This document shows, in pieces, positions 2,133-52,700 of a stretch of 64,000 nucleotides of DNA. Within the stretch, counting starts at the first letter, position 1; each line of letters starts with the position of its first letter. Under the pieces are notes generated by a model that searched no databases, was not told the DNA's origin, and saw nothing but the letters and a program-made list of their open reading frames with translations. The stretch is from Microbotryum violaceum (lineage: Eukaryota). Position numbers and translations under genes: made by a program. The stretch spans positions 1,178,001 to 1,242,000 of the forward strand of contig CDLV01000004.1 in assembly GCA_001244265.2 (NCBI GenBank), read 5' to 3'.

Positions 2133-9722
<7,590 letters not shown>

Positions 9723-11095
9723 CGGTGCTGGATCAAGCTGTTCAGATCAAGTGCAAGCTGACGAGATCCGTGACGCAGAAGGGATGGGAGCCGAATAATC
9801 TGAGCCTGTGAAAGAATGCTGGTTCCATTCAGTGTTGCTACACGGAACCAATTGCTTAGATGAACCTACACGACCCGGCAAGCTTTCATTTCACAATGAC
9901 GTTGAGCAGGAAGTGTTTCTCTGCTTGAGCATCGGCCTCGTCATAGGCCTGCTAAATGGCAAGCCTAGAATTGGAAGAGATGAGTGATCAGCTCAGAGAA
10001 GATTGGTACAGGTCTCATGGCACTCAACTTACGGTGCAGCATCATTGTTAAGGCCAAGAGCAGCTAAAGAGCGAACAGCGTTTTCAACCAACTTCCGCTC
10101 TTTTGGGTCCAGCACGACAAGACCTTTCTCCAAGCCATGCTGTCCCTAGGAAAAGCACGAAAAATAATCCCAATCAATCCACGCCATCGAACAGACGAAC
10201 AATTTGGCTGCTTCCCAACGAAATTGAGCAGCGTGTGCAAAGACGCGCTACACCCGAGGATCCTTGAGGGAGTATATTGCTCCTCTATGAGCAGTGACGA
10301 CAGCACCTCCAGAGCCTTCACGATGAGATGCTGACTTTTGATGTCGACACCCACATAAATTTCCATCCACTTTTGGCTGCTGATAACGATCGAACGCATG
10401 CGCTCGGCGTAATCTATATGCCGCCAGATCCTTCGACACCAAAAGGCAGCCGGTGCCCAGCAATAGCAATTGACCGGTAACCTTGCTCACGCGCCGCAGT
10501 AATTGCTCCACAATCCTTGAACTTGTCCGTCCAAGCATCGAGCGGCCTAGGAAGAGTATCACACTCGAGAGGCTCGTCTGTCGACCATGAAAGCTGTATC
10601 TGGGTTATCTGGGTGTCTGCAGTGGGCTGTCAAAGCGGAAGGCGAGAAGCTCGATATCCGGATTGTCTAGATACATTTCGTCGAAGCTGGCGAAGCGAAA
10701 ACGTAGGATAATGATGATGATGGCACAGACAACGCGACGCGGCGGGGGAGGCAAGAGACGGCGCACTCAGATGAGACGGCTCGTTCAACCAGCCAAGAGG
10801 CTTCTAATTGCAGAATCGAACCATTAGAGCCCTTGTTGTGAATTCGGTACAGGCCAGTGTTTCGCGCGCGCTCCGCATGTTCTTGAGGGTCGGCAAACTC
10901 TGGCGCACCAAGCCGAATGTGGCTGAAATGGGTCCAGATTTGTCCACTGGCACCTACGGGCCTAGGACCCCACCCGCACCGGCGCACCCTGATTTGTCCA
11001 CCCCCGACTACGCGCCTTCGCAATTTTGGCCCATCTGAGGCCCACAATTTGTCCAGTCGGGCACTACGCGCCTCAGGCCGGGCTTTCAGGGGTCC

Positions 11096-12171: not shown

Positions 12172-12711
12172 TGTCACAAACGGGATCTTGCGACTTGTGC
12201 CCTTGGCTCACGTGATCTCACTCGGACCACGTGACCTCGGCTCGCTTCCAGTACGGGTCCTCACTTCAGTATCGCACGTGATCACGTCTTGATCACATGA
12301 TCTCGCTTCGCTTACATCATCAGCTCACTTGGTCACATGGTCTCGCTTCGGGTACATCTATTGTACACGTGTTCTCGCCTGGTCCATGTGGTCTTGCCTG
12401 GTCCACGTGATCTGGCTCGGTCACATGACTCCGTTTGGCTCTTATCATCTCGCTTGATGCACATGACTTCGTTTCATGGGCACGTGTTCCTTTGCATTCT
12501 ATCCTGTGCATAAAAAGTGACCAGTGTGATAGCTTGTTTCTCTTTCTCTTTTCTGCAACTCGAATCTCGCAAAAGGTCACATCCTTGCTCTCGTCCCTCG
12601 TCCTCGCCTCTCTCGGGAAGTCCTTGGAACATCTCTCGACTCGTCCCTCGTCCCTCGCCTCGAGCCCCTACGTCCGGCTCACCTCCCCTATCTCTTTGCC
12701 CCTTCGTGATA
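12172..12711 (+). repeat. solo LTR rich in CACGTG/CACATG motifs
   Basis: Imperfect terminal inverted ends TGTCACAAA...TTCGTGATA; TATA-like CATAAAA ~12509; gypsy coding sequence stops and resumes at its two edges. Confidence 0.65.
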
Positions 12712-14120
12712 GCTCCAATGCGCACTTCTGGGCCAAGATTGACATGACCAACTCCTTTCAGACCAAGATGGCGGAGGAGGACATCCCTAAGACGGCCGTG
12801 TCCACACCTTGGGGTTCGTACAAGTGGACCGTCATGCCCATGGGCCTCTGCAATGCCCCTGCCACCCACCAACGACGTGTCAACGAGGCACTCCAAGGCC
12901 TGCTTGGCACCATCTGCTTCGTCTACCTCGACGACATCACCATCTTTGCGGACACACTGGAGGAGCACGAGGCCCGTGTTCGCCAAGTCCTGGAAGCGCT
13001 GCGCCGTGCCGAACTCTACTGCTCGCCAACCAAAACCAACCTTGCCACTGCGGAGTGTTCGTTCCTTGGCCACATCATCAACCGCGCCGGGGTGCATGCT
13101 GATCCCAAGAAGATCCAGCGCATAGAAGACTGGGCACTACCCAAGATGGTCAAGGAACTCAGGGGTTTCCTCGGGCTGGTGCAGTATCTTCCGCAAGTTC
13201 ATCCCTGGCCTCGCTGAGCACACCGCCACGCTGACTCCCTTGACACGCCAAGGACTCTCATCTATTGCCACACTCTGGACACCCAACGAGGTCCGCCACT
13301 TCAAAGCCATCAAGGCCATCGTCACCTCACTCGACTGCCTTCGGCCGCCCAACCACTCCGCCGACGCCGCTCCGTTCTGGGTGATGACTGATGCAAGCAA
13401 TCAGGGAATTGGTGGTGTCCTACTCCAGGGTCAGGAGTGGAAGATGGCGCGCCCCATTGCGTACTGGTCCAGGCAATACATACCCGCTGAACGCAACTAC
13501 CCCACTCACGAGCAGGAACTCCTTGCCATTGTCGAAGCACTCAAGGAATGGCGCATCGACTTGCTTGGCGGTCACTTCCACATCCTCACTGATCACTCCA
13601 CACTCTAGTACTTCCAGACCCAGCGCACCGTTCTCTCTCGCCGACAAGCCTGTTGGCTGGACACCCTGGCCGAATTTGATTACGACCTTCGGTACCTGCC
13701 CGGCGAGGACAACATCGTAGCCGACGCCATGAGTCGATACTCCTTCACCGATCCACTGCCCACACTAGTGGCCTCTGTCCCCCATGTCAAGCTTTCGGAT
13801 GCTGTCAAGCAGCAGATCCTCGACGCGTACGAGACCGACCCATTCTGCCAGCAAGCCATGGCTAACATTGGCTCAGTCACATCGAACTTCAAGATTGTTG
13901 ATGCATTGCTGTATTTACAGGGCCAGCTTATCATTCCATCACTAGCCCCGCTCCGTGAGTCCATCCTTCACGATGCTCATGATGTGCAGGGGCACTTAGG
14001 TGATATGAAAACGTACCGGACCGTTCAGCGGGCATACTTCTGGCCAAACATGTCCCGGGACATCAAGCACTACGTCCAACAATGTGATTCTTGTCAGCGG
14101 ACCAAAGCTCGTACCACTCG
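12712..14120 (+). pseudogene. gypsy RT-RNase H-integrase zinc-finger fragment
   Basis: [29 protein letters not shown]...CDSC; stops and frameshifts; ends abruptly at 14120. Confidence 0.9.
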
Positions 14121-15099: not shown

Positions 15100-17775
15100 T
15101 TGCACGTGAGGATGGCGCAGAGTCAAGCAGCCGAATCAATGACTGGATCGCCGAGCAGGTGGGCAACACTTCGTACTTCTCGGATTGATTCTCCGGATTC
15201 GAAAAAGCTACTGAATACTTGCCTTATCCGCGTGCAGGCCGACTCGATCATCTTTAAAGAGATGAAGCGAACCAAGTCCGCCTTCGTCGCTAGCCATGAC
15301 TTGACTCCCGAAGTCCTCGCATCCGATTACATCGACGCCCGGCTCGATGCAATCGCCGAAGACAACCCTTTTATCAGCGGACGGATTCGTAACTTGCTAT
15401 CACAATGCGGAGACCCACCACCGGCTGAGCCAATCAACTGTGACAAGGACCCAACAGCCTCCACTGATGTCGAGATGGAAGAAGCCACCCGGAGAATGCT
15501 TCCGATCCAGAGCAAGAGCAAGAGCCTGGTCACGAATAAAGACGTAACGAGTTCGTGGGTGTTTCTGACCCTAGCTCGGCTGGGTATCGCAGCGAATTGA
15601 CACCAAAAATCAACACGCTGGCCGCAGCTTTACCGCAGTGTCATGGGACAGATCGCATTCGCTTGCAACCGAAGGAACAACGTCATGCAGCATCGCAACG
15701 GTCTAATGACTCTCGCATGTGGAGCGAACGACCGATTGACAACATGTCTGTACGATTGCGGCTTGACAACATCTCGCTGGGCGACGCTCCAGGCAGCTGC
15801 GAGCTTGACGAAGGCGAATTCGCTGAAACTGAAGGAGATTGGCTCGAACAAGTACCTTCATTGACAACATCGACGTCACACATCACATCAACGATCGGCA
15901 ATTGGATCGACGAACCGAGCTGCTTCATGGAACTTTTGGTTACGCCCACATTCAGAACGGAGATATTGCCGGCGCTTACAACCTTCGAGCCTACTCTGCA
16001 CATCAAGCGTCTTTGCCACGAGTCAATCTCCAGCATCTCCTCCCAACTTCCCAATTCGACTCGTCATCTACAACTGGGATCAAAGCCCAGATATATCGAG
16101 CGCTTGCTCGACTGGTCCCTCATCTTGGCCTCAGTCTTCGCGATCCTCGATGCACACCACCCCCTGTGGAACAACTGGACGTCAAAATGCCCGACATCAA
16201 TTTGCTTCAAATGATGGACGAGTCGGATACCTCCACCGCGGATGTGCCACAAGTTATCAACAGGCTGAGACTACAGCGCGGTCTTTCAGAGACAGAATGG
16301 GCAGAGTCTCTACGGATACTTGAATGCGATGGAGGAACTTCAATGCTCGTCGAGTCACTCCGCAAGAATCGTTACCCTTTTCGGAAACTCTACGATGGGC
16401 TGGGCACTGTGATCACAGTGCCAGGGGTTGCTCATCTTCAGTGGTGCATTGGCGCGGCAACCTATCGACGATATTTCGGGGACCCAGCGCTGGGATCGAA
16501 CTACCGAGGGTCACTCTATATCACTGCCACTTTACTTGGTCGCAAAAAACTGGACCCCAAGGAAGTCAAGGATTTCAACCAGATGGAACGGCTTCTTCGA
16601 GACACAGCACAGCTAGAGCTGTTGGATTGTTTCCTGTCAGTCACTTCGCTCCAGCTGATGATTTTCAGCACTCTGCCCCAAGTCTCTTAGAATCTGACAG
16701 CACTCCCACTTTTTGATACAGACAAGAACTCAGACTGAAGACGATCGACGAGCAAAGACCAACCCACCTTACCGGACTTGATGTGGTGATTGAAAGGGTC
16801 ATCCGCAGGTATCTCTCTGCCAATGCCATTGAACAAGCGAAAGCCAACAAGAGTAAGGCCCCGGCGTTTTACGAGTCACTACTTCGGTTGCGCGACTTGG
16901 TCGACTTCGAGGAGGGCTACTTCGCAACCTTGCAAGGGGACATCGGTCGAGTAATCCACTGGTGGGAGCGGATGTCGCCCTTCCTTCAGGCCGCAGAAGG
17001 TGTCTCCCACTACCGCAGCCATCTGCCACATCTACTTCTACTCCTCAAGTCGGACCTACCGACCCAGCTCACGCGCCTTGTTCGGCGAGGCTTGCTGATA
17101 TGTCCTAGCGGTCGGCGTGGGAAGTTTTGCGGGAAGGATTTTTATTTGGAGACGCTAAATTACTGGCTGAAGTATTTTTTTCTCGGTCAAGGTGAGTCTC
17201 AAAAAGTATGGGGCTTTGCTTGTTGTATAGAAGATTAGTACTGATACCCTTCGACAGGGTGCTGGTTGTTCCTTTGACAAGATGCGCGACGTCATATCAT
17301 CCAACATTCTTCTGGTCAGCCGGAGCCCCTCTTCAGAAGCATTTGTGCAACACCTTTGACCTGACATCTTGAGAACGGGTTGGTGATCAGCAGTTTCGAC
17401 AACTGATGTGCGATATGAAAACAATCATCGGACGCAAAAGCCTTTCTCGAAACCATATCAGCACCATCAGCCCAGCAAGCGTGCGGGTTGCCACTGGACG
17501 ACATGCGCCGCAACAAGATCCATCGTCCATGCGACAACACTTCAGGACTCTGGGACCTCAAGCGCAGACCTATCGTGGACAAGAAGGAAGAAGGCACCCA
17601 GAAGCTCGTGTGCATGACACAGAGCGAGTTGGATCTATTTCGCTATGGACCCAGTCTTCCACCCCAAGCTTCCCTTTCTCAGGAGTCGCAGGAAGACGAA
17701 GATCCTCTGATTGATGTATCGGAGGAGTTGGCTCAGGAGTTCAGAGAGAACATGGAGGCGATGATTTTCGATTGA
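15100..17775 (+). pseudogene. DUF6589-type (Academ) transposase, intron-containing, disrupted
   Basis: Motifs AFACNRRNN, FIDNID...HGTFGYAH, ECDGGT, GDIGRV, CPSGRRGKFCGKDFYLETLNYWLKYF; introns 16636-16690 and ~17192-17257; stop at 15598-15600 and frameshift near 15850. Confidence 0.75.
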
Positions 17776-21311: not shown

Positions 21312-24300
21312 TATGATGTTAAGCAACGCACAGACCTGCTCAAGCAGTGGTAAGTCTCTGATCGACGGACCAAAGGAGACCAGACCAAGAAGTTGCTTAA
21401 CACACCTGCTCAAGCAGTGGTAAGTCTCTGATCGACGGACCAAAGGAGACCAGACCAAGAAGTTGCTTGAGCAGGAGAGAGAGAGGCGCGCAGGACCAGC
21501 TAGTTGGGGGCAAGTGCGCGCGTCTGGCCAGAAGACGGAAGATAGACGGCAAAGGCCGGGTCTAAAGGAGAATAAAGGTAGAGACACAGGGGCCATGATG
21601 CTAGAAGGAAATAGGAGAGAATTAAAGTACTTTGAGAATCTCACACCCCCCGACTTCGAGCATCAGGGAGAGCAGATGCCAAGGCGGCCACGGTGACGCG
21701 CAAAGAGGTCGCGGGCTAGAGCCTTAGTGAAAATGTCGGCGGTCATGTCGGCCGTGTTGATGTACTGGACAGCGACATCACCAAGGGCGACCATGTCGCG
21801 GACGAAGTGCTCGCGAAGCCGGATGTGGCGGGTGCGGGCATGGAAAACCGGGTTCCGAGTGAGAGCGTTGGCGCCTTGGTTGTCGCCAAGCACGAGAGTC
21901 GGAGCAGAAGAGGGGAGACCCAACTCACCAAAGAGTTGACGCAGGAAAACGGCTTCCTTGCCGGCATGCGAGAGGGCCAGGTATTCGGCGTCGCAAGTGG
22001 AGTCGGCCACGCGAGACTGGAGGCGCGAGGACCACGAGATGGCGCCACCAGCATAGAGGAAAGCATAGCCCATGGTCGACTTGGAGGAGAGCACACAGGC
22101 ACCCCAGTTGCAATCGGAGTAGCCAATTACGGGAGCAGAGTCGCCGTGGGAATAGCACAGGCCGTGCGAGAGTGTTCCAGCAAGGTAACGGAAAACGTGT
22201 TTGATAGCACCCCAGGCAGCTTCGGATGGGGACCGGGAGAATCGAGCCAAGTAACCGACAGCGTAGGCCAGATCGGGGCGAGTGCCAGTGGATGCGTACA
22301 TGAGCGAGCCAACGGCCTGAAGATAGCGGGTGCGGTCCGCAAATGGGGTAGGGTTGGTCTCAATCTCAAGGTGGAGGTCGGATTTCATCGGGGTGGCAAC
22401 CGGGTGGGCGTTCGACATGCCAAAACGAGCGAGGATGTCCTTGAGGTACTGCTCCTGGCTTAGCGTGATCGAGCCATCGGAGGAACGCCGGATTTGGATG
22501 CCCAGGACATATTCCGCTTCACCAAGACGCTTGACACCGTAACATCGTTCAAGGCCCTGGAGGGTGCGCTCAATTTCGGGTAGGGAGGGACCAATCATGA
22601 GGAGGTCGTCGACGTAAAGCGCGATGTAGTGGTGGACGTCCCCAACGGTTTTGACGTAGACGCAGTGGTCGGACTCAGTGGCAATATAACCCAGCCCAAG
22701 GAGGGTAGAGTCAATTTCGTCGTTCCAGATGCGACCAGCCTGGCGTAAGCCGTAGAGGGAACGGTGCAATTGTAGAACTTGACCGGGCAGGGCAATGCCC
22801 TCGGGGACACGCATGTACAAAGGCTTGTCGAGCTTCCCATGAAGATACGCTTTGTCGATGTCAGCCTGGTGAACGTGGTAGCCTCGGGCAGCAGACAGGG
22901 CCAGCAGAGCACGAATTGAAGTGAACTTGGCAACGGGCGCAAAGGTCTCGTCGAAATCGATACCGGATCGTTGGGAATCACCGCGGGCGACAAGGCGGCC
23001 TTTGTATGACTTGACCTTCCCGAACTGGTCGCGTTTGGTGCGGAAAACGAAGCGAGAGCCGATGATTTTGGCGTCGGCGGGGACGAGGGATTGGTCGATG
23101 GGCGTGAAAGCGGAGAAATCGCGAGAGAGTGAGTCAAATTCATCACGAGCCGCAAGACGCCACTCATCTGCCTGTGGTGAAGCCATAGCAGCACGCCAGT
23201 GGGGTGGGTCGCGCGCAGGGGCAACAAGCTCAGCGGGGTCGACGGTAGAAGTGTCCAGAAGGGCGGCAGCGGCGTCCGCAAGGTAGCACACAGGCGCAGG
23301 GGAGTGAAGGGCGTCATCAACATCATCGGAGAACTCCGGGGCAAGGCATAGGGCGGAGAAATCATAGGAGCTGGGCCGGAGTCGAGGAGAGGGACAAGGC
23401 GTAGAAAAAGCCGAGTCAGGGCTGCCCTGGTCAGGGGCGCCGCCTTGGTCAGAGGCGAAGGGTGCGGGCAATGCCTGGTCAGGGACATTACGAGCAAGGG
23501 CCGGCGAGCCTTGGTCAGAGGCATCAGGTGCCGGGATAAGCTGCTCAGCGCGAGGCACAGGGGAGCGGGGGGGACAGGAAGCAACGGCTGGGGGGGTCAG
23601 CCTGGTCAGGGCGTGACGCAACAACATCTGGGAGAGGGTTGGCCGGAGAGAACAAGGCGGGAGTCGGTGTCGAGGCGGGGAACTCGGATTCACGGAAAAG
23701 GACGTTCCGACTGAGGAGCACCTTGCGAGTAGTCGGATGGAACAGGCGGTAGGCCTTTGAATGGTCGTCGAGACCAACGAAGATGAGCGGTATGGCCTTA
23801 GGGTCGAGGGCAGAGCGGGACGTCGAAGGAAGGCAATGCCAGGCACGGCAGCCGAAGGTGCGAAGGGAGGAAATATCCGGCGCGTAACCATACCAACGAG
23901 CGTCGGGAATGTCGCCATTGATGCCGGCATGGGGTGTCATGTTCTTGCATCGGACAAAGTACATAGCAGCTTCACCCCAGAGTCGCGAGTCGACACCGGC
24001 CGAGTAGGCAAGGGCAAGGATGCCCTCCTTGATGGTGCGGTTGGGGCGCTCAACCCGGCCGTTCTGCTGGGGCGTGTAGGGTATTGTGAGTTCCCGACGA
24101 ATACCCTTGCTGCAGCAGAAATCGACGAAACTGCGCAGCGTGAATTCACCGCCATTGTCGGAGCGAATGGTCTTTACGCTGTCGCCGGTCGCTCGCTCAA
24201 CCTCAAGGATCCAATCACGAAGACGCGGGAAGGTGTCGCTCTTGCGTGCAAGGAGGATACACCAGTGCTTGCGGGTGTGGTCGTCAACAATCACAAGCAT

Positions 24301-26350
24301 GTAACGATGGCCGCCGAAGCTAACGTGTGGCATCTGGGCAAGGTCGACATGGATCAGGCCGAGGCGCTGGGAGGCAATCGACGTGGAGCGGGCGAATGGA
24401 AGGGCATGCGCTTTGGAAGCGAGACATGCATTGCAATGGAAGGTCCTACACTCCTCGTCCGAGTAATCCCACGCCACACCAGTAACCATCCCTTTTTGAA
24501 CGATTTTCTTGAGAAGGAGGACGGGGAGGTGCGCAAGGCGGTTGTGTAGGGTAAGCAAGGACACGTGGGAGGGCGAAGCGAGCAGAGCGTGGGGCCTACA
24601 AGGTGCAGGAGTGAGGTCCAGAGTGTAGAGGTCATTGGCGATGGCCCGAGCGGTGGCGACAGCGGTACCAGCGGCGTTGCGGATGGTGGCGACGTTGGAA
24701 CCGAACGAGACCGTGAAACCGAGGCGGTCGAGGCGTCGAACGGACAACAAGTTGCAAGGCAACGAGGGCACATGAAGAACGTCAGCAACGGCGATGCGAC
24801 CGGAAGTCGTGTCGAGCGCCACGGAGCCGGAACCGGTGGATGGTAGGGAGCCCGCAACACCAGCAACGTGCGGTCCCTTGACGGGCTGCAAGTGCGTAAA
24901 GAGGCGAACGTCGTTGGCCATATGCCGATTGGCGCCGGAGTCCAGGAGCCAGGCCCCCTTGTCGAACGGGGAGGAGGCCGAGAGAAAGCAGGCGGAGTAG
25001 ATCGCAGGTGAGAGGTGCTCGTCGGCGACAGATGGCGCGGCAGCGGGAGAGGCAGCGGGCTGGGAAGGCTTGCGTTCGCCGGCGGGCTTGTTACTGTTCT
25101 CGATGGCACGACGCGCGCGGAAGGAGGCTGCCCAAGCGGTGTCGGGGCAGTCCCTGAGCCAATGCATCTTGCGACACTTTGGGTTGGGGCACGGGGTTCG
25201 AGGAGCGCGGGTGTCGCGAGCGGAGGATCGAGCAAGCGCCGCGGTGGGAGCGTCGACTGGACGAGCGCGAATGTCGCGTAGGAGGCGATCGAAAATCGCC
25301 GAGACAGACGGCAGGGTTGTCGAATCACCCTGGTCGTTGACGAAGGTCGAGCGCCACGACTCGAGCGATGGCGGTAGCCGGGAGAGGAGGTGCGAGGCGA
25401 CGAGAGAGTCGACAGTGACCTTCGACGAGGTGAGCAGACGAAGCTGATTCTCGAAACCGTCACGGAACTGGAGGAACGAGTCCGTGGTGGCGGGGAGCTC
25501 CTCGGTGCTGAAGAGCGTGACTACGGCCGGAAGGAGGTCAACAGCCGAGGTGGCGCCGTAACGAGAACGGAGAGCCTGCCAGATCTTCGGCGCGCCGTCG
25601 CTATCGTCGAGGAAGGTCGACAAACCGGGGAGGACCAAGCGAGGGTCGACAGACGAGCAGAGCGAGGAAAGGGCGTAGTGGTCCCATAACGGGACGAGCG
25701 AGGGGGGCCACGAAGTGCATGGCTCACCGCTCTCCAGGTACCGGAGGACACCGGCCGGCAAACGCGAGCGGACGACAAGGAGCCAATCCTGGTAGCCCGC
25801 CGAGTCGCGGAGGAGTTCCGTTGCAGCAAACGAGGCTGGCTGCTGCGGCGGACGAGCGACGATAGGGGCGATAGCGGCTTCAAGGGAGGTGCCGGGCTGG
25901 GGCGTAGCGCCGGGCGCGGACTTGGGAGGCATAGCGGGGCGGCGCGAGCGTGCGAAGAAAAAAAACGAAACGGACGCGAAAGCGACCGTGCTGGTAGATC
26001 GTGTGGGCTTATAACCTATGATGTTAAGCAACGCACAGACCTGCTCAAGCAGTGGTAAGTCTCTGATCGACGGACCAAAGGAGACCAGACCAAGAAGTTG
26101 CTTAACACACCTGCTCAAGCAGTGGTAAGTCTCTGATCGACGGACCAAAGGAGACCAGACCAAGAAGTTGCTTGAGCAGGAGAGAGAGAGGCGCGCAGGA
26201 CCAGCTAGTTGGGGGCAAGTGCGCGCGTCTGGCCAGAAGACGGAAGATAGACGGCAAAGGCCGGGTCTAAAGGAGAATAAAGGTAGAGACACAGGGGCCA
26301 TGATGCTAGAAGGAAATAGGAGAGAATTAAAGTACTTTGAGAATCTCACA
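21312..26350 (-). mobile_element. Full-length, young Ty1/copia element
   Basis: 334-bp LTRs 21312-21645 and 26017-26350 identical by eye; perfect TSD TTGAC; PBS GGTTATAAGCCC (26005-26016); G-rich PPT 21646-21651; order gag-PR-IN-RT-RH. Confidence 0.97.
21663..25932 (-). CDS. copia gag-pol polyprotein, single frameshift near 23590
   Basis: ATG 25932 (MPPKSAPG); knuckle CPNPKCRKMHWLRDC, WLLDSGA, IRSDNGGEF, QQNGRVER, LYVDDLL, YSDCNWG, ADIFTKAL; the two ORFs join if one base is removed from the G7 run 23590-23596. Confidence 0.9.
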
Positions 26351-28512
26351 TTGACCACCTCCCGAATCGCAGCCAACGTTCTGCGCTCCGGCGATGAACA
26401 GCAGTATGTTTGCCGCCGATCGACACGGGTGCTCTGCCTGGACTACCGGCTCACGATCACATCTGACACATAGGTTCATATGCTGCCTCTAGGTACGAGT
26501 CGTGCACCTTGCCTTGGACTCCCTATCAGTCCGCATATAACGACTATTCGGGTCCGTGGGTGGCCGTCGCGTCGATCGCGTACAGCATCGGTCTGTTCTG
26601 ACGTTACACCGTCGTGCACCCGATCCAGCGCCCACTTTCGCTGGCGTAACGGCCATCTCGAATCCTGCGTCGTACACCTATCAATCGTCGCCGGGATCTG
26701 CTTCGTCCAACCAACCAGTTTACCGTCCCAACGTTCCCCGATCAGGACGCATCGATGGCCCGTATCTAGCTCCGCCAGCAAGCATCAATCTCGCAAGCAT
26801 CGCAAGCATGGTCGAACAAGGAGGGAACAATCCTGGCGGCACGGGTGACGCAGCAGGTTTGCCAAATACTGCACTTCCGCTCGCGATCGTCAAAAGTTGC
26901 GGGCCGCACAAGTTTCCCAAGACGAGGAGGGAGGCCGCGCATCAGGAGGGAGGGATGTATCAGCGAATGTCTGCGCACAGCTTGGCACGCACCCGTGGCC
27001 GACAAAAAACGTTGAGACCAAATGCCAATGGTACAACATCATCCTCAAGGACCTGTTCCGTGAGTACAAGAAGTGCAGCCTGCCTACTCTTCCATACAAG
27101 GTGCCTAATTTTGACCCGGCTCGCTGTCTTCAGAGTCCGCGCTACGCCAACGCTCCGTGCTGGACGGCGAGAAGATCCAATTGCCCAAGTTCGTCTATGA
27201 CGTAAAGGCCCTCAGGGACAACGCCAGAATCATCGTTCAGCGCGGCGCGCTCCTTCGCAAAGCGGATTTCCGAAGCCCGAGTAGCAAGCTCAAGTTGTTG
27301 GGACGACCTGGATCGGATCATCCAATTGCTGCGTGCAGGCGAGCTGAGCTTCAGCCTGGAGGAAGAGGTAATCGGGTCAAGTGCAGACCAGGCAATGGCC
27401 GACGGCGATTAGGGCGGTGACAGCGATGCTGACCGGCGGACTCGGAACACGAGCTCCGACGAGTACAGCGAGTGAGGTGACGATGGCCGAGCTTTCAGCG
27501 CCAGCCGGACTCGTCGACGCGCATGCGGTGCGAAGATCTTGGCTGTTGAAGGGCCAGAATTCGTTGAACACAGGCCACCACAATCGTTCTTTTATATTTT
27601 TGCTTCATATGCATCCGGCTCTTGGTGACTAGAGGAGGAGAGGGTGATTGCTCGTTGCCCTTCGTACCTAATCTTCCCCTGGGCCGCTCGAGACCGACCT
27701 CTCCTTGTTGACGTGGGATGTGCCAGGGACGTAACCCTGCTCACAAACATTATCCTTCTTGTTCTGCTGGGTTGTTCTCGAAGTACTATGTAGAGTTGAA
27801 TTGCCCAGTGAGAATGGAGTGCTCCCTGATCCGTGGACCAGACGGAGCGTCTGCTTTCCGGAAGTGACTCTTTGAGCAAAAGAATGAATGAACAGAATCC
27901 GCAAGGCGCTTCCACTAATTGCAGTGTATGTTAGCATCTTTTTATAATCTATTAGCACTAAAGTGAACGGGCAAGGGTTGCATCTGGCCGGGCTCGGTCT
28001 TCGCCAAAGTGCCAATCAGAGCTGCTGGGTCACGGTGACGCCCCCCGGCCGGCTGACTTCAAGCGGCGCGCGCTCCCAGAAGAAGGCGAACTGATCTGAG
28101 CCCCTGAATTCTGAACGCGCAAGCGGAGCGGAACACGTAGGTAATCACTCGTAATTTGCGAAGTAGCGACAAAGTACGTGCTTGATGAGAGGTGGATCGA
28201 ACTCGATGATAGGTTCGGTGAAAACATGGAAGGTTTAGGCTTGTAACAGGCTCTTGGAGCGAGAACTGAGCTCAATTGACTCCGCAATGGTCGCTCATAC
28301 CTACCTCTTGCTTGAAGAAACACTCCTTCTCATCAATGAGGTAGGCCGCTAATCCTCAGGCCCCACAGTGAGTGCTCAAAGCAGAGAGAATTCTTGCATT
28401 CGCCACACTAAAATAAATTGTCAGCACTTCTGCCCCCGTCAAGCATAAACTAAACTAGAGCTTGAGATCTTGACACTAAGCTCTTCTTAAAACAGGCGCA
28501 AGTCTCAGTAGC

Positions 28513-28669
28513 TGTTGGAATCAACGATGATCCCGAAATGATCAACAAAAGAAGAAGAACGGCTGGACCAGGAGTCGAACCTGGGTCGCTTCCATTCATT
28601 GGAAAAGCTTTGACCAACTAAGCTATCCGGCCCCTGATATCAGTGCAAGGTCTACTAACACCTTCAACA
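28513..28669 (-). mobile_element. 157-bp solo LTR containing a tRNA-like Pol III cassette
   Basis: TGTTGG...TCAACA ends, perfect TSD GTAGC; homologous to 41041-41196. Confidence 0.9.
28561..28632 (-). ncRNA. tRNA-like sequence inside LTR (not a canonical tRNA)
   Basis: GGCCGGA/TCCAGCC acceptor-like stem, A box TAGCTTAGTTGG, B box GGTTCGACTCC, downstream TTTT; anticodon arm aberrant (TTCCA-ATGAA-TGGAA). Confidence 0.8.
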
Positions 28670-28792
28670 GTAGCAGGGATCGGGATCGGTGCAAAGGATT
28701 TTCTACAAAACAAAAAAAAGTCTTTTGCCGCGCCATGGCAGGAAGTCGAATCCTTCGAGCGGGAATCCTCATAGAGAGAGCCGCCCAGTCAT

Positions 28793-29134
28793 ACGCACAT
28801 GCCAACTTTGCTATTCAACCCTGTCCGAAGGTAGGAGATACATTCTCTATACTGACCAAACCCAATCACCCATTTTCACGTGGTCGACATTATAGGTACT
28901 CGAGCAATTGCATGCGCTTTCATTGAAAAGTCACCCGGCACTGGTATGGGAAACCGCCGAGCCATCTTCTTCGGAAGAAGGGCTTGCACGCATATGCCAA
29001 CTTTGCTATTCAACCCTGTCCGAAGGTAAGAGATACATTCTCTATATTGATCAAATCCACTCGCCTATTTTCACGTGGAAGACATTCTAGGTACTCGAGC
29101 AGTTGCATGCACTTTGATTGAAAAGTCACCCGGC
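28793..29134. repeat. two ~147-bp direct repeats, period 195 bp (probably subterminal repeats of the KDZ element)
   Basis: GCCAACTTTGCTATTCAACCCTGTCCGAAGGTA...GAAAAGTCACCCGGC at 28793-28939 and 28988-29134. Confidence 0.85.
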
Positions 29135-30940
29135 CAGTCACCCGGCGGGAGCCTAGTAAGGCAGGCGTAGCCCAGAGATTAGGTCTGACCATATTTCTTC
29201 CTATAAGACGGTGTTATTACTCTCACCTACCGCAATTGAGACGACTTAGTTTGCAAACACCATGTCCATTGTTTCAACATTAAGTTGCTCCACTAATTCA
29301 ATCTACATCAGAAGCTGGTCTAAACGCCCGACAAGTATTCGTCTTCCTGACCAGCGAATTCATCGCCGTAGCTTTCACCTGAAGAGCTGCCCATCTCACC
29401 GTCCTGCTCGAGGAGTTATGCGGAGAAAGGCCCCACCTCCTTTGCGAGTTGAGTCTCGTCGCTCATATCCATCCGCGCCTGAATGACCCGCACTTGCTGA
29501 ACGTCACGGGCCAGCGGTGCAGGCCGCGCCGAGTCGAGGCCAGATGTCTCCATAGGACCGCGTGTTCCCGATCGATTATGTGCAGGTAACTTGTGATGTT
29601 TCGCCTTCTCGACAATCCTTCCCGTCGCGTTCAATCGCTGATGTAAACCACGAAATTCTGACAGTGCAGGATGCATGGGCTCGGAATCGCTCTCTGACTG
29701 CCCGCGAGTGTCGAGCCAAACATTGAACAAAATGGTCGTTCTGGGACCAAGAACATTCGCGCAGCTGAAGAAGCTCCACCCGGCGATCCAGTATAATGAG
29801 CGCGCGGTCTCAGATCTCTTCAACATCTTCAGCGCTGAATATGGACTCGGCATCAGCTGGGTCGATCGATTCAGGAAGGGTATCTGTTGGGATGGTTTGA
29901 AAGATGTCAGGGCGACATAAGAGGTGATATGGAGCACGCTGTATCGAAAACTTACCCGACATGTTAGTCCAAAGTGTTTGGAATCTAGTGCTACGAGTCT
30001 TTTCGTCTTCGATCCAAGCCAAAGCTTACCGCACCTCGGCGCCGATCCACGCTTTCTCCTCACCGACTCGATCCTTGGCGCGCACAGCTGCTACTCCTCG
30101 GAATGAGCGACCGTAGCCCGCTCACAGCCCTCTCCATCAGTCAACCCGAAGTTCGGAATGAGGCGGGGGTTGAACTCGACTTGGCAGGACCAGATATGGG
30201 CGTATGCATGGAAGACGCTCGTGGCGAACTCCAGTCGCTTGAAAAGCTTTGGCAGGAGCTGCCTCTGGTGACAAATGATTAGAAAGTAGGCACATTTGGT
30301 CTGTGCCAACGAGACTAAGGAGGAAGGGACGCGTCGTGATCGAAGCATACCTTTTCAATATGGTGCTTAAAGTTACAAGCAATGTCGTATAAGACTCCGA
30401 TCTTGGCATTTTCAGGAAGGCGCTCTGAGATGTGCTTGAGGATGGCAAGCGCATAATACGATCTGAGTGGCCGGAGCAGCTCCGTCGTCGGCAGCCTTCT
30501 ACGACTCTGTGCACGCCTACGAGGGTGGGTGGGTGTAGAGGTAAGCGATCCCATTAAGGCAAATGCAAAAAGCGGCATTACTCACCTTTTTGGTCGGCCG
30601 CACCGAAGCTTTAACCTCGGCCTTCATCGCCTGAACCTCTTCCTCACCCAAGAAAGTGTCCGGAACAATCTGGTCGTGGTTCGAGTTTTTCTCACGCGTT
30701 TGCTGAAAGTTGCCGTCGTATGCAAGCACGCAATCCAATGTGACGTCGTGACAAGGTTGATTAAGTCACGTTGGCCCGAAGCACGCGGAACACTTGTTGG
30801 AACGAATCGACGGTGCCTACGAGAAGATCCCCGCTGTCCTTCTCGCATATTTCGAGAGCGCGGTACTCGTCGATCGCGTTGCTTCCGAAGGTCTTTGTCC
30901 TGTATGCGCGGAAGGCAGGCTTTAAGCATGTGCCCATGAA

Positions 30941-34513: not shown

Positions 34514-36575
34514 ATGTCCGTAGCAAGCTCCTCCCTGAGGACAACACGGAGGCTCTTGGTCGATACGAGGTCAGTCTAGTGCATCGATCTCCACACGTTC
34601 TACCTCCGCAAGGCTCGATTCGTACGGGGAAAAATCTCCGATCCAGCATCCAATTACATCGATCCGCACACGCACCAGAGTGGATCGCCGTTCTCTTCCG
34701 CCCAGTTATATGAGCTCATGTGATCTGAGACGCTCTACAAGCTCTACAACGCCTCCCCTCGAGCCGTCCACCGCTTCGCAGCCCATCGAGCTCACACACG
34801 TCTTGCGTCTCCCGATCCACTACAGGACACTGACGCATCACCTGACTCGATCGTCCACAGTTTGGCCCATGCTTCATACTCTGCGATCACCTCAACGAGC
34901 TCGCTCTTCCTCGCTCGACCCCTCGTCAGGTATGTCTCGTCTTCCCCTTGCGGGCTCAGTCCTGCTTGACGACGAGTTCCCAGCCGTGAGCCCTTGCTGA
35001 CCTGGAGGTCGCACCCTTTTTTCCAGATCCTTCTCCGCGTCTACCTCATCCTCCTCAACGCGAGCACTTGTCATCTCAGGTCGAAGGAATTGGGAACCGT
35101 TGAGCAAAGCCGGCATCTCGGCTCGTCGAGGATTCGCATCCAGCTCCATCAGTGCAGGTTGGATTCCTTCGTTTCAGTGGCGTAGCAATCCTGCGGCCAC
35201 CGAAGTGACATCAGCGAGTAACGGTACTGGTTTCGTTCCCGAGCATTCTGCGGCTGTACCCACACCAGGTGCCGTCGACATCGTTACGCCGTCCCCGGCG
35301 ATACCTTCGACAACGACGCCCGCGGAGCCTTCCGTTTTAGCAGCGGCTACAGCCCCACCACAGACAGCATCTACCGCCGCCGAAGCCGTCAACACATCCG
35401 CAGATGCTGCTGCGACTGCGACCGAGCCCACCTTCTATCTCCCTGGCGACTCGCACATCTTTTCCGGAACGCTTGATCTCACTTCCCTGGCTGGATCATG
35501 GGGTCCCCACCCTATCCAGCGTCTCCAATCTATGTTCCTCCACCTCCACGAATCGTTTCCCTTGATCGCACCAACGACCGGTCTCCCATGGTACATCCTC
35601 ATCCCGACGGTGACGATCGGTTTGCGCATGCTCCTCTTTTGGTTCCAAGTCCGCGCCAACGCCAACGCCGCTCGTCTGGCCATCATTCAACCCCAGCTGT
35701 TGGCCGGGATGGAAAAGGTCAAACAGGCCAAAGCTCGCAACGACATGACTAGTGCTCAAGCCGCGCAAATGGAGACGGCGGCGTTGATGAAGAGGCACAA
35801 GCTCAACCCGATCAAGAATCTCGTCTTCCCTTTGACGCAGGGCACGGTCTTTATGGTCATGTTCTTTGCTTTGAAGGGCTTGGCGAATGCCGGTTTGCCC
35901 TCGATGGCACAGGAGGGTTTCGGATGGGTGCAGGACCTGACGCAGCGTGATCCGACGTGGGCGCTGCCGATCGCTTCGAGTGCTCTGACGTTGGCAACCC
36001 TGGAACTAGGCGTCGACAAGACGATGACGGTGCAAACGACGACGACCAAGAACATGAAGATGGTGTTCCGCTTCTTGCTCGTTATCTCGATTCCCTTCAT
36101 CGGTTACTTCCCCGCCGCACTCTTGTTGTTCTGGTGCACCAACAACTCCATCTCGTTGCTCCAATCCCAAATCCTTAAACTCGAACCCGTCAGAGCCTTC
36201 TTCAACATCCCAACACCGCCTCCCAAGGCTTTACCTGGTCAAAAGGGTTACATCAAAGAACCTTCTTTCTCTGAAGCGTTCAAAAACATGCAAACTGCGA
36301 CCAAGGAGATGTCGGAGCAAGCGGCTGAGAAATCGAGGGCCCATAAGGAGTCCAAGAACAAAGACGGGCAACAGCTCCCCAGGGCCGAAATGTACGTCCC
36401 GACGAACCATAGCAGCAAAATTGGTAAGGTTGAGGAGATCGCGAGGAGTTTGACGCCCGATGGGGCGCTCAAGGGTGCCAAGGGCGTGACCAGGGCCGAG
36501 TCGCTTATTGAATTGCAGGATGAGAAGATCAGGAGGGTGCAGGCTGCGAGGGAACGCAGGCACAAGATGAAGTAG
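34514..36575 (+). CDS. OXA1: mitochondrial inner-membrane insertase Oxa1 (YidC/Oxa1/Alb3 family)
   Basis: Predicted exons 34514-34569, 34861-34929, 35027-36575 give an open frame with an R/S-rich presequence (MSVASSSLRTTRRLL); GLPWYILIPTVTIGLRMLL, GFGWVQDLTQRDPTWALP, PAALLLFWCTNN; basic C-terminal tail. Confidence 0.92.
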
Positions 36576-40798: not shown

Positions 40799-40987
40799 TG
40801 TTAGAAGTGGGGTCTGAGAGCCTAACTCATTTCTATTAGTATTGGTTGATACTTTATTCTGCGCGCGCACCTATCTTTGTCTTTGCGTCTTTTTTCCTTC
40901 TGGGTTCCTTCTCCACGCTATTCTCATCATCTCACTCGTGTATCTCAGAGCTGAGTCGTGGAGTACCTCTTAGTCCTTGTTGCAACA
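40799..40987 (+). mobile_element. 189-bp solo LTR of the 50884-55661 copia family (short form)
   Basis: TGTTAG...GCAACA, perfect TSD GGCCC; matches 55473-55661. Confidence 0.95.
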
Positions 40988-41040
40988 GGCCCCACCAAAG
41001 AGGGCTTGAAGAGCCTCAGACGTATCGTAGGGAATGGGAT

Positions 41041-41196
41041 TGTTGGGATCAGCAATGATCCCGAAATGATCAACTAAAGAAGAAGAACGGCTGGACCAGG
41101 AGTCGAACCTGGGTCGCTTCCATTAATTGGAAATGCTTTGACCACTAAGCTATCCGGCCCCCAATATCAGTGCAAGGTCTACTAACACCTCCAACA
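41041..41196 (-). mobile_element. 156-bp solo LTR containing a tRNA-like Pol III cassette (second copy)
   Basis: TGTTGG...CCAACA ends, perfect TSD GGGAT; tRNA-like part 41089-41159 with A box TAGCTTAGTGG and B box GGTTCGACTCC. Confidence 0.9.
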
Positions 41197-41284
41197 GGGA
41201 TTGCCTTCCATACCAACCAGCTCGTCGAAATCGCGCCACCCGCCACCTTTGAAGCTACAAGTGATACATCAGCCTACATTAGCA

Positions 41285-41919
41285 TGGAGACCGGCGACAC
41301 CGGCCCACCCCCACCATCGGCGTCCGCGGCGACGAGCGTCCCGATTGGGACAAAGGAGACGCAAGTCCCTATTGCCGCCACGACCTACGCCACCGCTGCG
41401 ATTCAAAAGACCAAGCAAACTCCCGAGCAGCAGACCCAACAACAACACCGTGCCAAGGCTTTGACCCAAATGTTCGAAGTCATGGGTGCTGTACCGGGCA
41501 ATCGCACCAACCGGTGGTTGCAAGCCACCTTTGCCACAGACGAGTACCCTGTCGCTACCGCTACATCGCTCAAGTATTCGGCTCTCAACGCCAATCGATC
41601 CATTCGAAACATCTTCGACTTTGCTCTCGACGTCACTTTGACCGTCCAAGGCGCCTCGAAGGCCTCTCCCGCGGACAAGGCCGATCTGCTCGGTTGCGTC
41701 ACGAGTCTGCTCTCCCCGCAATCGCCCCTGTGCTTCGACACCGAGGTCACCCTTCCCGAGCACCTTGCGGCGTTTGCGCCCCAGATTAGAGGTATCCAAT
41801 ACTCGTCTTTTGTCAGGGCCGGTGTGGTCAACCACCGTATCTCTGTGGGATTTGTTTCGGCGAAGGCACGTGACTCGGCGCTTATGGCCCCACTGGCGCT
41901 TACTTGGGGTGACGAGTAG
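41285..41919 (+). pseudogene. LINE ORF1-like fragment (second family)
   Basis: RAKALTQMFEVMGAVPGNRTNRWL resembles KAFQNACRVLQIVPSSKLTRRL of the ORF1 at 42368 and 59355. Confidence 0.45.
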
Positions 41920-49775: not shown

Positions 49776-52700
49776 GGGGGGGGGGGGGGGGGAAAGGAGA
49801 GGGGAAAACTTCACAAAGCCTCCAACGCAAAGACTATTGGACTTAACTTGGTCATCACACCTCCCAATCTCGAGCCCCAGGCACAAAGCCCGCTCGAGAG
49901 AGAAAATCTTGCTCAAACGCTCTGAGTGCACCGGGGAGCAAGGGAGGGGCCACGACCTTGTCCAGCTCAAACCGCTGATGAACACGCCAGCGGAGCAGGT
50001 GCAGCCGCTGGAAGCCGATCGCGCAAGCCAGCCAAACCCACATCCATTTTGAGGTCGTTCTCCCACGACCCCGCAAAAAGGGGAGCCCCATAGTCAGCTG
50101 CTCCGGAGTGAACATCAACGGATCGACATTGTTATCCTCAATGCTCAGCTTGTCAAACAGAATGCAAAGCACCCCGCCCCAGAAGCTGGTCGAGTACGCG
50201 CACTCGAAAAAGTAGTGCGACACCGTCTCAATGACCGCTGCATTGTTGCCGCAGAACAGACACGTCGGCAAAGAGGCATGACCCTGAGTATGCTGCCTCT
50301 TGCACATCGGCGTCACGTCATACACGAGCCGCCAGTGGGTATCCTGCTCCACAGCAGACGCAAACCGGTCATGAAGCCATCTCCAAAAGCGCTTCCTATC
50401 GCTTTGAGAAGTCCCATCACGGAAACGCTTGACGCAATCCTCCCTCCCTGGGAACCGAACCACGTTCACAAGCCGACAAAGCTTGCAAATAGTGAATGGT
50501 TGGGTGAGCCCAAAGAAGTTGAAGCACCGAGGACGGGGAGCCTCCTTGAGAGGTATCCGAGCAGGTCGCAACGCGGTCTTGGGCAGCAAGGCTTTTGCCT
50601 TGAGCAACTGACCCACGCGCGACCACACGTGCTCGTGCTGTAGGGCGGGTTCCTTAGAGTGCTGCCAGAACCCGCGTCAATGACCAACCAGAGCCCAGCC
50701 CTTCCCTTTGTCCCTCCAGTACAGGTCCGCAATCTGCACAAACTTTGCCACTGCGTCCGCATTGTCATACGCGTACTTGACATCTTTGGCATAGAGTGAA
50801 GGGAGGTAAGGCGGAAGCGAGAGCAATTCGGGGAGGGTAAGGAGTTCGGACTTGATGGTTGGTAAGGTGACCCTGGCCGCTGCTGTTAGAAGTGGGGTCT
50901 GAGAGCCTAACTCATTGCTATTAGTCTTGGTTAATACTTTATTCTGCGCGCGCGCCTATCTTTGTCTTTGCGTCTTTTTTCCTTCTGGGTTCCTTCTCCA
51001 CGCTATTCTCATCATCTCACTCGTGTATCTCGGAGCTGAGTCGTGGAGTACCTCTTAGGTTAGTTACTGCAAAGCCACGCTATTCTCATCATCTCACTCG
51101 TGTATCTCGGAGCTGAGTCATGGAGTACCTCTTAGTCCTTGTTGCAACAGGTTATGAGCTCAACGGGCAAATCCGACTTCCCCAACGGGTCGGGCAATCA
51201 CTTGTATCTCAAGGACACACAAGGGTACAAGAGCTGGTCACAACATGCGTTTATCAATCTTCGAGCCGACAAAGTATGGGATGTCGTCAATCAATCCATC
51301 GACTCCCTTGTCGCGGACTATCGGTCCACGCTTGTTATCGCACATGCATCTGCGTCCGTCGCGCCAGTTGAACCAGCCTCCTCCGGCTTTAGCAGGCTTG
51401 GGGGGGGGGGGCTCTGGTTCTGCGCACTCGGACGCCTCGCCCAGGCTCACCAGCGTTCTAGTTGCGGACAAGGTCGCGGAATATCGCGAACGGGCCATCC
51501 GCCGCAACAATTTGGCATGCAAGTACATCGCCAATTCGATCTCTGAGGAACAGATGTCTCACTTGATTCATCTTACCTCGACGTACGAGATGTGGGACAC
51601 CCTCCGTGGTCTCCACTCTCACAGTCGCCCGAGTCGCACTATGGACCTCCTCAACACTCTAGCGCAACCTTACTCTGGGGATATTCCTTTTAAGGAATTC
51701 GTCAACAAGGTCAAGATTGCCATGACCGATTTTCAGAACCTCGGAGCTCCGCTTCCGCATTGGCTGTTTGCAGGCATGCTCCTTCAGTCGCTCCCAGCCC
51801 AGTATGACTCGATCGTTGGGAACCTTGCCTCTGACATCGACATCCACATGGATTGGAACACGTTCTATCCGAAACTCCTGATGAACGTCGAAATGGCTGA
51901 TTCCCGAAACAAACAAAAAGAATCGTTATCCGCTCGGATCGTTGACGATACTAGCCTCGTCGCCCGTATTTCCACCACGGCGCAAAAGGACTACTCCAAG
52001 TCGTATTGTTCGCGCTGCATAGCACTGGGACACGAGCGTGGGTGGCGTCTCCGTCCAAGCAGGAACAAGGATGCGAGCGCTCCCGCTTCCTCGGACTCAA
52101 ATTCGAACGTAGCTGCCATTGGTGTAGATGAATCTGCATTGATGACCTACACTTTCCCCTATTCGCGAACGATGCCACGTTTTCCATGGATCATTGACTC
52201 GGGTGCTAAGGTCCATTGCGTTGGAGACAAGTCGGTCCTATCGGACATTGTCTCTGAGCCTCTCAAAATTTCTGTCGCCGATCAATCTCAAATCGAATCT
52301 CCCGGTCATGGCTCAGTGACGTTTCTTACCTCATATGGCGCTTGTATCACCATTAAGAGGGTCTACTACATGCCCGGTGCTCAATGCGGTTTTATCTCCA
52401 TCAACCGTCTGTTGGAATCGATGACATACGCTGCTGGTCCCCAAAGCAATCTCATTTTCAGCATCCGCGGCAAGTCAATTCTGCGCTCGCTTCCTGGTCG
52501 GGGGTTTGTCATGGATGCAGCTCCCGTTCAGCCTATCATTTCATCCTCACCGCCTTCAATGGTCGGAGCCAATTGTCTCACTGGAACCTGTACGTTGATG
52601 GAAGCACATCGGAAGTTGGGCCATCAATCTCCTGCGGCGATTGTTTTGGCCGTCAAATCCGGGGCTATCACTGGCATCACTCTGAAGGACGAAAAGGTCA

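Follow-up and report, generated by a model that had tools for sequence, protein, structure and literature searches.

A tRNA-bearing LTR-type unit in Microbotryum violaceum with a plan like that of the Helenus elements of rust fungi

Introduction

Helenus (TRIMp3) elements are TRIMs of rust fungi with tRNA-like sequence inside their LTRs (Kojima 2024, PMC10886601). That paper gives full lengths of 311 to 1263 bp, with two LTRs enclosing a short interior that holds a PBS and a PPT. The LTR lengths in its DataS1 file, which covers 113 fungal Helenus families, include 112 and 274 bp, and Helenus-9_PSt combines an LTR of 112 bp with a full element of 321 bp. In the DataS1 consensus sequences compared here, fungal Helenus LTRs start with TGTTG or TGTTA, most LTRs end in ACA, the tRNA-like unit lies in sense orientation in the 3' half, and the trailer is T-rich and usually includes a T4 run. 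The tRNA-like unit contains a box A (TRGCY...YGG) and a box B (GGTTC), and tRNA finders label it Thr-AGT, Ser-TGA, Ser-AGA, Ala, Pro or a suppressor tRNA. The target-site duplication (TSD) of fungal Helenus elements is 5 bp, a value that Table S1 gives in three fungal rows, and the elements, which are linked to Copia, frequently persist as solo LTRs.

The same paper proposes an age of about 130 million years for Helenus and its restriction to the Pucciniales, and section 3.2 reports that none turned up outside that order, "including Microbotryum, Leucosporidium, and Rhodotorula." As described in section 2.1, the search relied on similarity to known Helenus consensus sequences, so a diverged Helenus family could escape it. 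Section 3.1 adds that "not a few" LTRs in Repbase hold tRNA-like sequence and that only some of these belong to TRIMs. The plant TRIMs called Cassandra follow a similar plan, in that the gene of a small RNA, with its own internal promoter for Pol III, sits in both LTRs of a short non-autonomous element and the transcripts arise from that promoter; the Cassandra LTRs differ in carrying 5S rRNA sequence rather than a tRNA, and their hosts are plants (PMC10886601). In Microbotryum, the account of the M. lychnidis-dioicae genome lists 0 SINE copies in its Table 2, along with 134 nuclear tRNAs and an unclassified share of 41.6% of the TE space (PMC4469406). Our search of the full-text literature found no report of a tRNA-bearing LTR element in Microbotryum; two later papers merely cite Helenus.

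Here we analyse a 64-kb stretch of M. violaceum DNA (the window). A sequence-only reading had proposed that a 157-bp segment of it is a miniature LTR built around a tRNA-like Pol III promoter, and had noted that tRNA-bearing non-autonomous LTR elements have been named Helenus and that Cassandra LTRs contain 5S rRNA sequence. Both statements agree with PMC10886601.

Results

Two LTR-type units, each with its own target-site duplication

The segment in question, copy 1, occupies 28513-28669 (157 bp) and runs TGTTGGAATC...CTTCAACA on the plus strand, starting with TGTTGG and ending with CAACA, which gives a terminal inverted repeat of 5 bp. Its tRNA-like part is read from the minus strand, on which the unit reads TGTTGAAGG...GATTCCAACA. 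Perfect 5-bp duplications of GTAGC flank it at 28508-28512 and 28670-28674, so the length, ends and TSD are as the sequence-only reading had given them. A second unit of the same build, copy 2, lies at 41041-41196 in the same orientation; it is 156 bp long and has a terminal inverted repeat of 6 bp, and its TSD, GGGAT, occupies 41036-41040 and 41197-41201. Termini of the LTR type (TG...CA forming a short inverted repeat, here TGTTG...CAACA) and a perfect 5-bp TSD are therefore found in 2/2 copies.

The two copies share 93.6% identity over 157 columns (blastn), and when 20 bases of flank are included in the alignment the likeness is bounded exactly by TGTTGG and CAACA. They differ at ten positions: three in the leader, four in the trailer and three in the tRNA-like part, where the differences are a D-loop indel, position 26 and the middle base of the anticodon. 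With the borders preset by the alignment, two perfect 5-bp TSDs would be expected by chance with a probability of about (1/1024)^2. Because each copy has its own perfect TSD, copies 1 and 2 represent two separate insertions and not the ends of a single 12.7-kb element. No third copy was found in the 64-kb window, in which blastn returned the two full matches and 14 chance matches of at most 22 nt, and nhmmer, run with a profile built from both copies, returned two matches with E<1e-56 and four others with E>=1. By both searches the window contains the unit as solo copies only, and not in a two-LTR arrangement with a PBS and a PPT.

Copy 2 also lies near a candidate gene: an ATG-started open frame without a Pfam match (41285-41919, plus strand) begins about 90 bp away, so copy 2 may sit in the upstream region of a gene.

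A decayed tRNA gene with A and B boxes

In the tRNA sense, copy 1 is made up of a 37-nt leader that starts from TGTTGAAGG (28633-28669, minus strand), a 73-nt tRNA-like unit (28560-28632) and a T-rich trailer of 47 nt (28513-28559), which includes TTTT at 28547-28550 and ends in CCAACA. The tRNA-like sequence of copy 2 is 72 nt long (41088-41159, minus strand). Both exceed the gathering score of the Rfam tRNA model RF00005 (29), with 48.9 bits for copy 1 and 52.4 bits for copy 2, and they are the only Rfam matches in the whole 64 kb. The tRNA-like share of copy 1, 73 of its 157 bases, bears out the earlier estimate of about half. ARAGORN labels the two parts Ser(tga) and Stop(tta).

The B box, GGTTCGACTCC, is the same letter for letter in copy 1 (28571-28581, minus strand) and copy 2 (41099-41109, minus strand). 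Upstream of it on the tRNA-sense strand, copy 1 has the A-box-like sequence TAGCTTAGTTGG (28614-28625) and copy 2 the A box TAGCTTAGTGG (41142-41152), as judged from the general consensus and from section 3.5 of PMC10886601; the two differ by a one-base indel in the D loop, a T. A T run lies 10 nt beyond the end of the tRNA-like part, four Ts long in copy 1 and three in copy 2, and copy 1 has a second TTTT inside the tRNA-like part (28603-28606). Both boxes and the downstream T tract described in the sequence-only reading are present. As that reading had noted, the anticodon changes between the copies (TGA in copy 1, TTA in copy 2); the B box does not, and the A box differs by the single T. 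If Pol III starts near the 5' end of the tRNA-like part, the 37-nt leader would correspond to U3 and the start of R. The TTTT at 28547-28550 may act as a weak Pol III terminator, and the internal TTTT of copy 1 could cause an early Pol III stop.

A uridine at position 33 is near-universal in tRNAs. The anticodon loops of copies 1 and 2 are AAUGAAU and AAUUAAU, with A in place of U at position 33. The acceptor stem has one mismatch (C4.A69), the "Ser" anticodon is paired with a short variable loop, and the TTA anticodon of copy 2 reads a stop codon. The cloverleaf is otherwise regular, and the anticodon stem has five pairs, one of them U.G; the anticodon arm, which had been described as abnormal, is so in its loop and not in its stem. 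Neither tRNA-like part has the U33 and the isotype consistency that are canonical in functional tRNAs. On the strength of A33, C4.A69, the short variable loop beside a Ser anticodon and the stop-reading copy 2, the tRNA-like part is a decayed tRNA gene and not a working tRNA.

Copia elements of the window share the terminal signature of the unit

Copia element A (50884-55661, plus strand; TGTTAG...GCAACA) has LTRs of 266 bp and 189 bp, a TSD of GCTGC and the PBS GGTTATGAGCTC directly after the LTR. The longer, 5' LTR (50884-51149) contains a 77-bp tandem duplication that is present neither in the 3' LTR (55473-55661) nor in a solo LTR of this element at 40799-40987 (plus strand; TSD GGCCC). 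That solo LTR and copy 2 are 53 bp apart, with the LTR downstream of the tRNA-like part, an adjacency that could be due to chance in a TE-rich stretch or to copia integration being drawn to Pol III-type sites. Copia element B (21312-26350, minus strand) has 334-bp LTRs, a TSD of TTGAC and the PBS GGTTATAAGCCC. Its LTRs show 100% identity in the 300 nt that were compared, its gag-pol ORFs measure 965 and 757 aa from stop to stop, and it looks like a very recent insertion. Copia element C runs from 62879, starts with TGTTGAAGTAAAT and has an LTR of 167 bp and the PBS GGTTACGAGCCC, and a fourth copia LTR ends at 883 and is followed by GGTTATGAGCCA. All four PBSs (at 884, 26005, 51150 and 63046) are of the GGTTAYRAGCYC type, which makes four matches in the window, compared with 0.57 expected by chance. 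This type of PBS corresponds to priming by the anticodon loop of the initiator tRNA-Met, according to PMC10886601.

The window copia LTRs resemble the tRNA-bearing unit in their short length, in their starts (TGTTAG, TGTTGAAG and TGTGAG), in their ends (ACA or ATA) and in the 5-bp TSDs that are present wherever both ends fall in the window, that is, in element A, its solo LTR and element B. Such starts, ends and duplications are what the copia integrases of this genome leave behind, and the 157-bp unit bears the same signature. The copia LTRs are unlike the unit in that they have no tRNA-like part (ARAGORN, Rfam) and flank gag-pol ORFs, and the four of them show no similarity to it beyond the terminal bases (blastn, nhmmer). 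Since copia LTRs in the window measure 167, 189 and 334 bp, size alone is no argument for a miniature non-autonomous element or TRIM; the label "miniature" is apt insofar as the unit, at 157 bp, is the shortest LTR, and loses its force beside autonomous copias with LTRs hardly longer. The orientation of the unit cannot be read from its terminal bases, because both of its ends resemble copia and Helenus 5' ends.

The window as a whole is very rich in mobile elements, with several copia elements, a chromodomain gypsy, LINE-type fragments and a DUF6589 ORF. The gypsy-type element (2979-9723, minus strand) encodes a chromodomain integrase and has LTR segments of 244 nt that are 99% identical (4452-4695 and 9480-9723). 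Fragments with LINE-type RVT_1 and zf-RVT matches, at 12429-13217, 49855-50676, 55846-56736 and 61114-62073, indicate that non-LTR retrotransposons are also present in the region. The ORF at 15833-16690 (plus strand), which adjoins other TE fragments, matches DUF6589 with an E value of 1e-25, a domain linked with large fungal transposons. There is also an intact Oxa1-type ORF at 35001-36575, 96% identical to a Microbotryum saponariae protein and 85% identical to an M. intermedium protein, which places the window in a Microbotryum species.

A dispersed family with fixed ends in related Microbotryum genomes

Parts of 28000-29200 are shared by 20 public sequencing runs from four organisms, none of which has more than 0.46 of the sampled words. 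We aligned the Logan contigs of four of these runs (X1, X2, X13 and X16, from three organisms) to 28213-28969 at 80% likeness, which placed 121, 126, 102 and 117 contigs per run. In all four runs the summed contig depth over 28513-28669 exceeded that of the neighbouring bins by a factor of 15 to 150; in X2, for example, it was 1731 in 28525-28550 and 28.5 and 11.5 in the flanking bins. Set against the depth of long single-copy contigs, these values very roughly suggest about a hundred LTR copies per genome, depth in itself being no copy number.

The ends of the unit are the same from site to site. At the left junction, the contigs with loose ends that set in exactly at 28512/28513 number 8+14, 7+15, 4+17 and 7+15 in the four runs, or 21-22 per run. 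At the right junction, loose ends begin at 28669 in 6, 4 and 7 contigs of three runs among the 24 of 110 entries listed. The agreement among loose ends with their consensus is 0.38-0.56, and simulated random flanks in groups of 4-17 agree at 0.38-0.53. Agreement at the random level implies that the flanks are unrelated and that the same two ends occur at many independent insertion sites. The unit thus belongs to a dispersed family with fixed ends in related strains, which is the behaviour of neither a SINE nor a tRNA gene. Together with the termini, the 5-bp TSDs and the similar starts of the window copias, these fixed ends at many unrelated sites uphold the earlier classification of the unit as LTR-type. 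They also bear on the test that the sequence-only reading had set for a SINE, namely variable ends and an A-tail; the ends do not vary and the A-tail is absent, which disfavours a SINE.

Contigs of 1659-4290 nt each contain one full solo copy with 13-15 differences from copy 1. In three long contigs from three runs the copy stands at the same contig position, and these probably represent one shared locus. None of the 32 contig pieces listed (of 477) has two copies; the assemblies, built from 31-letter words, are unable to span a pair of identical LTRs. In each of two runs, one contig matches from 28668 onward and has 16-17 unmatched letters ahead of that point, and a left-flank contig stops at 28512, so these contig ends could mark an empty site in those two strains.

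Variants with a share of one tenth or more of the depth lie at 28597, the middle anticodon base (listed as tRNA position 36), where the change gives TTA as in copy 2; at 28600 (position 33); at 28608 (position 25); at 28616 (position 17, in the D loop); and at 28635, in the leader 3 nt upstream of the tRNA-like part. No variant in the B box is among the common variants listed for the contigs of the four runs. This pattern fits a promoter that is kept while the anticodon drifts free, and it could be owed in part to the young age of the copies.

The sequence around copy 1 is itself repetitive in these genomes. Its flanks at 28213-28512 and 28785-29134 are repeated, as seen from variant contigs and raised depth, and the right-hand one includes a 147-nt direct repeat (28793-28939 and 28988-29134, 90% identity). 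At this repeat, contigs of 4/4 runs have a joint that goes back by 176, from which we conclude that the number of repeat units probably varies. We also considered whether the consensus left of 28512 might be a PBS complementary to a tRNA 3' end and rejected this reading, because its agreement of 0.44-0.56 (4-8 contigs) is that of random flanks, shared loci account for the likeness across runs and the motif does not occur in the window even when up to 3 mismatches are allowed. Conserved stretches of the element, used as exact patterns in two scans of metagenome contigs, matched nothing in either.

Discussion

The copia-like ends and duplications of the two units, combined with a decayed tRNA gene, make it very probable that the unit is the LTR of a copia-type element that carries a tRNA-derived module. 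More specifically, and by analogy with the described systems, we propose at a probability of roughly 0.6 that both units are solo LTRs of a Helenus-type, non-autonomous element that was inserted by a copia-type integrase and has a decayed tRNA gene in its LTR. Like the Microbotryum unit, Helenus has a TGTTG start, an ACA end, a 5-bp TSD and, in sense, a tRNA-like part that includes A and B boxes. Read in the tRNA sense, the two also share a T-rich trailer in which a short T run occurs and the tendency to be called as Ser-TGA or suppressor tRNAs, and solo LTRs with 5-bp TSDs are common in Helenus. The differences lie in the host, since Helenus occurs in rusts and Microbotryum belongs to the Microbotryomycetes within the Pucciniomycotina, and in the anticodon region, where the Microbotryum unit lacks the intron-like insert of Helenus; moreover, the Microbotryum element is known here from solo LTRs alone. 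Compared by eye with the sequences in the PMC10886601 supplement, the D arm, the T arm and the acceptor 3' strand of the unit come closest to Helenus-4_PGr/PSt and Helenus-12_PHor, which are of the Thr-AGT type. This likeness is limited to the tRNA-like part and serves as a lead only, because sequences from the same parent tRNA would look alike. When four short motifs were searched in that supplement, three had 0 matches and one had 5.

The main rival to this Helenus-type reading is that copies 1 and 2 are solo LTRs of an ordinary autonomous copia family, transcribed by Pol II, in which the tRNA-derived sequence is a captured passenger. The window copias, with their 167-, 189- and 334-bp LTRs, similar ends and 5-bp TSDs, lend this some weight, as does the presence of tRNA-like sequence in Repbase LTRs of which only some belong to TRIMs (PMC10886601, section 3.1). 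We nevertheless consider it unlikely, since none of the four window copia LTRs resembles the unit past the first few bases, the variation among copies avoids the B box (among the variants listed), and a complete tRNA-like unit with both boxes and then a T run is the plan of the Helenus LTRs that are classed as TRIMs in DataS1 of that paper. A MITE, a miniature DNA transposon whose terminal inverted repeats are very short and whose duplications are 5 bp, would likewise be small and dispersed and have fixed ends, and TGTTG and CAACA do form an inverted repeat. MITEs, however, have inverted repeats of some 10 bp or longer at their termini and a TSD typical of their superfamily. The repeat here spans just 5-6 bp, the TG...CA ends and 5-bp TSDs are also those of the window copia LTRs, and a transposase-type partner that has such ends was not found in the window, which leaves this origin improbable.

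The readings that start from the tRNA itself fare worse. A tRNA-derived SINE moved by a LINE would account for the tRNA-like core with its A and B boxes, and LINE-type reverse transcriptase fragments (RVT_1, zf-RVT) are in the window; SINE2 elements also resemble the unit in being small and present in many copies with a tRNA-derived head. The unit differs from them in its LTR-type ends, in the conserved 37-nt leader ahead of the tRNA-like part, in a TSD of exactly 5 bp in 2/2 copies and in having no poly(A), simple-repeat or LINE-derived tail. Both of its ends are fixed, the left one at 21-22 contigs per run, and the count of 0 SINE copies for M. lychnidis-dioicae in Table 2 of PMC4469406 points the same way. 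Taken together, these observations make a SINE very improbable. Least probable of all is that the copies are functional tRNA genes, or simple tRNA pseudogenes with flanks that are alike by duplication. Both tRNA-like parts do fold into cloverleafs and pass the Rfam gathering score, but the A at position 33, C4.A69, the short variable loop that accompanies a Ser anticodon, the stop-reading copy 2 and the many copies with TSDs all speak against this reading.

For the Helenus-type element that we favour, the Cassandra and Helenus examples suggest how it would have moved. The A and B boxes in the 5' LTR of a full element would serve TFIIIC and Pol III, with the start close to the 5' end of the tRNA-like part. 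Transcription would then pass the weak T3-T4 run, the PBS, the short non-coding interior and the PPT and would end in the 3' LTR. The reverse transcriptase and integrase of a copia, acting in trans, would copy and insert the element, producing the 5-bp duplications; copia A could be an example of the integrase type able to move such a family. Recombination of one inserted element's two LTRs with each other would leave solo LTRs such as copies 1 and 2. These copies would now be immobile and would serve at most as stray sites for Pol III and TFIIIC.

What is new is the presence of a tRNA-bearing LTR unit in Microbotryum, a genus for which section 3.2 of PMC10886601 reports no Helenus; the kind of element is already known, and the mechanism is not a new one. 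If our reading is true, it extends a kind of element described in 2024, in which an LTR has captured a tRNA promoter, to another class of fungi, and the extension to the Microbotryomycetes bears on the age of this kind and on how often it has arisen. For annotation, copies that are called as tRNA-Ser or suppressor tRNA genes could inflate or distort tRNA counts, and copies could stay unclassified in the TE catalogues of Microbotryum, which is a model for TE build-up on mating-type chromosomes. The finding should interest specialists in mobile elements and be useful for the annotation of both tRNAs and TEs in this genus.

A bolder possibility, which we put forward as speculative and regard as doubtful, is that Microbotryum contains a sizeable Helenus-type family of about a hundred LTRs per genome with the same Thr-like module as Helenus-4 of rusts, that its lineage is older than the rusts, and that its solo LTRs seed stray Pol III/TFIIIC sites. 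If this were true, Helenus would be older than the rust order and would reach back toward the common ancestor of the Pucciniomycotina, as opposed to the age of about 130 million years and the restriction to the Pucciniales that PMC10886601 proposes. The solo LTRs would then seed the Microbotryum genome, including the TE-rich non-recombining regions that make the genus an object of study, with stray sites for Pol III and TFIIIC.
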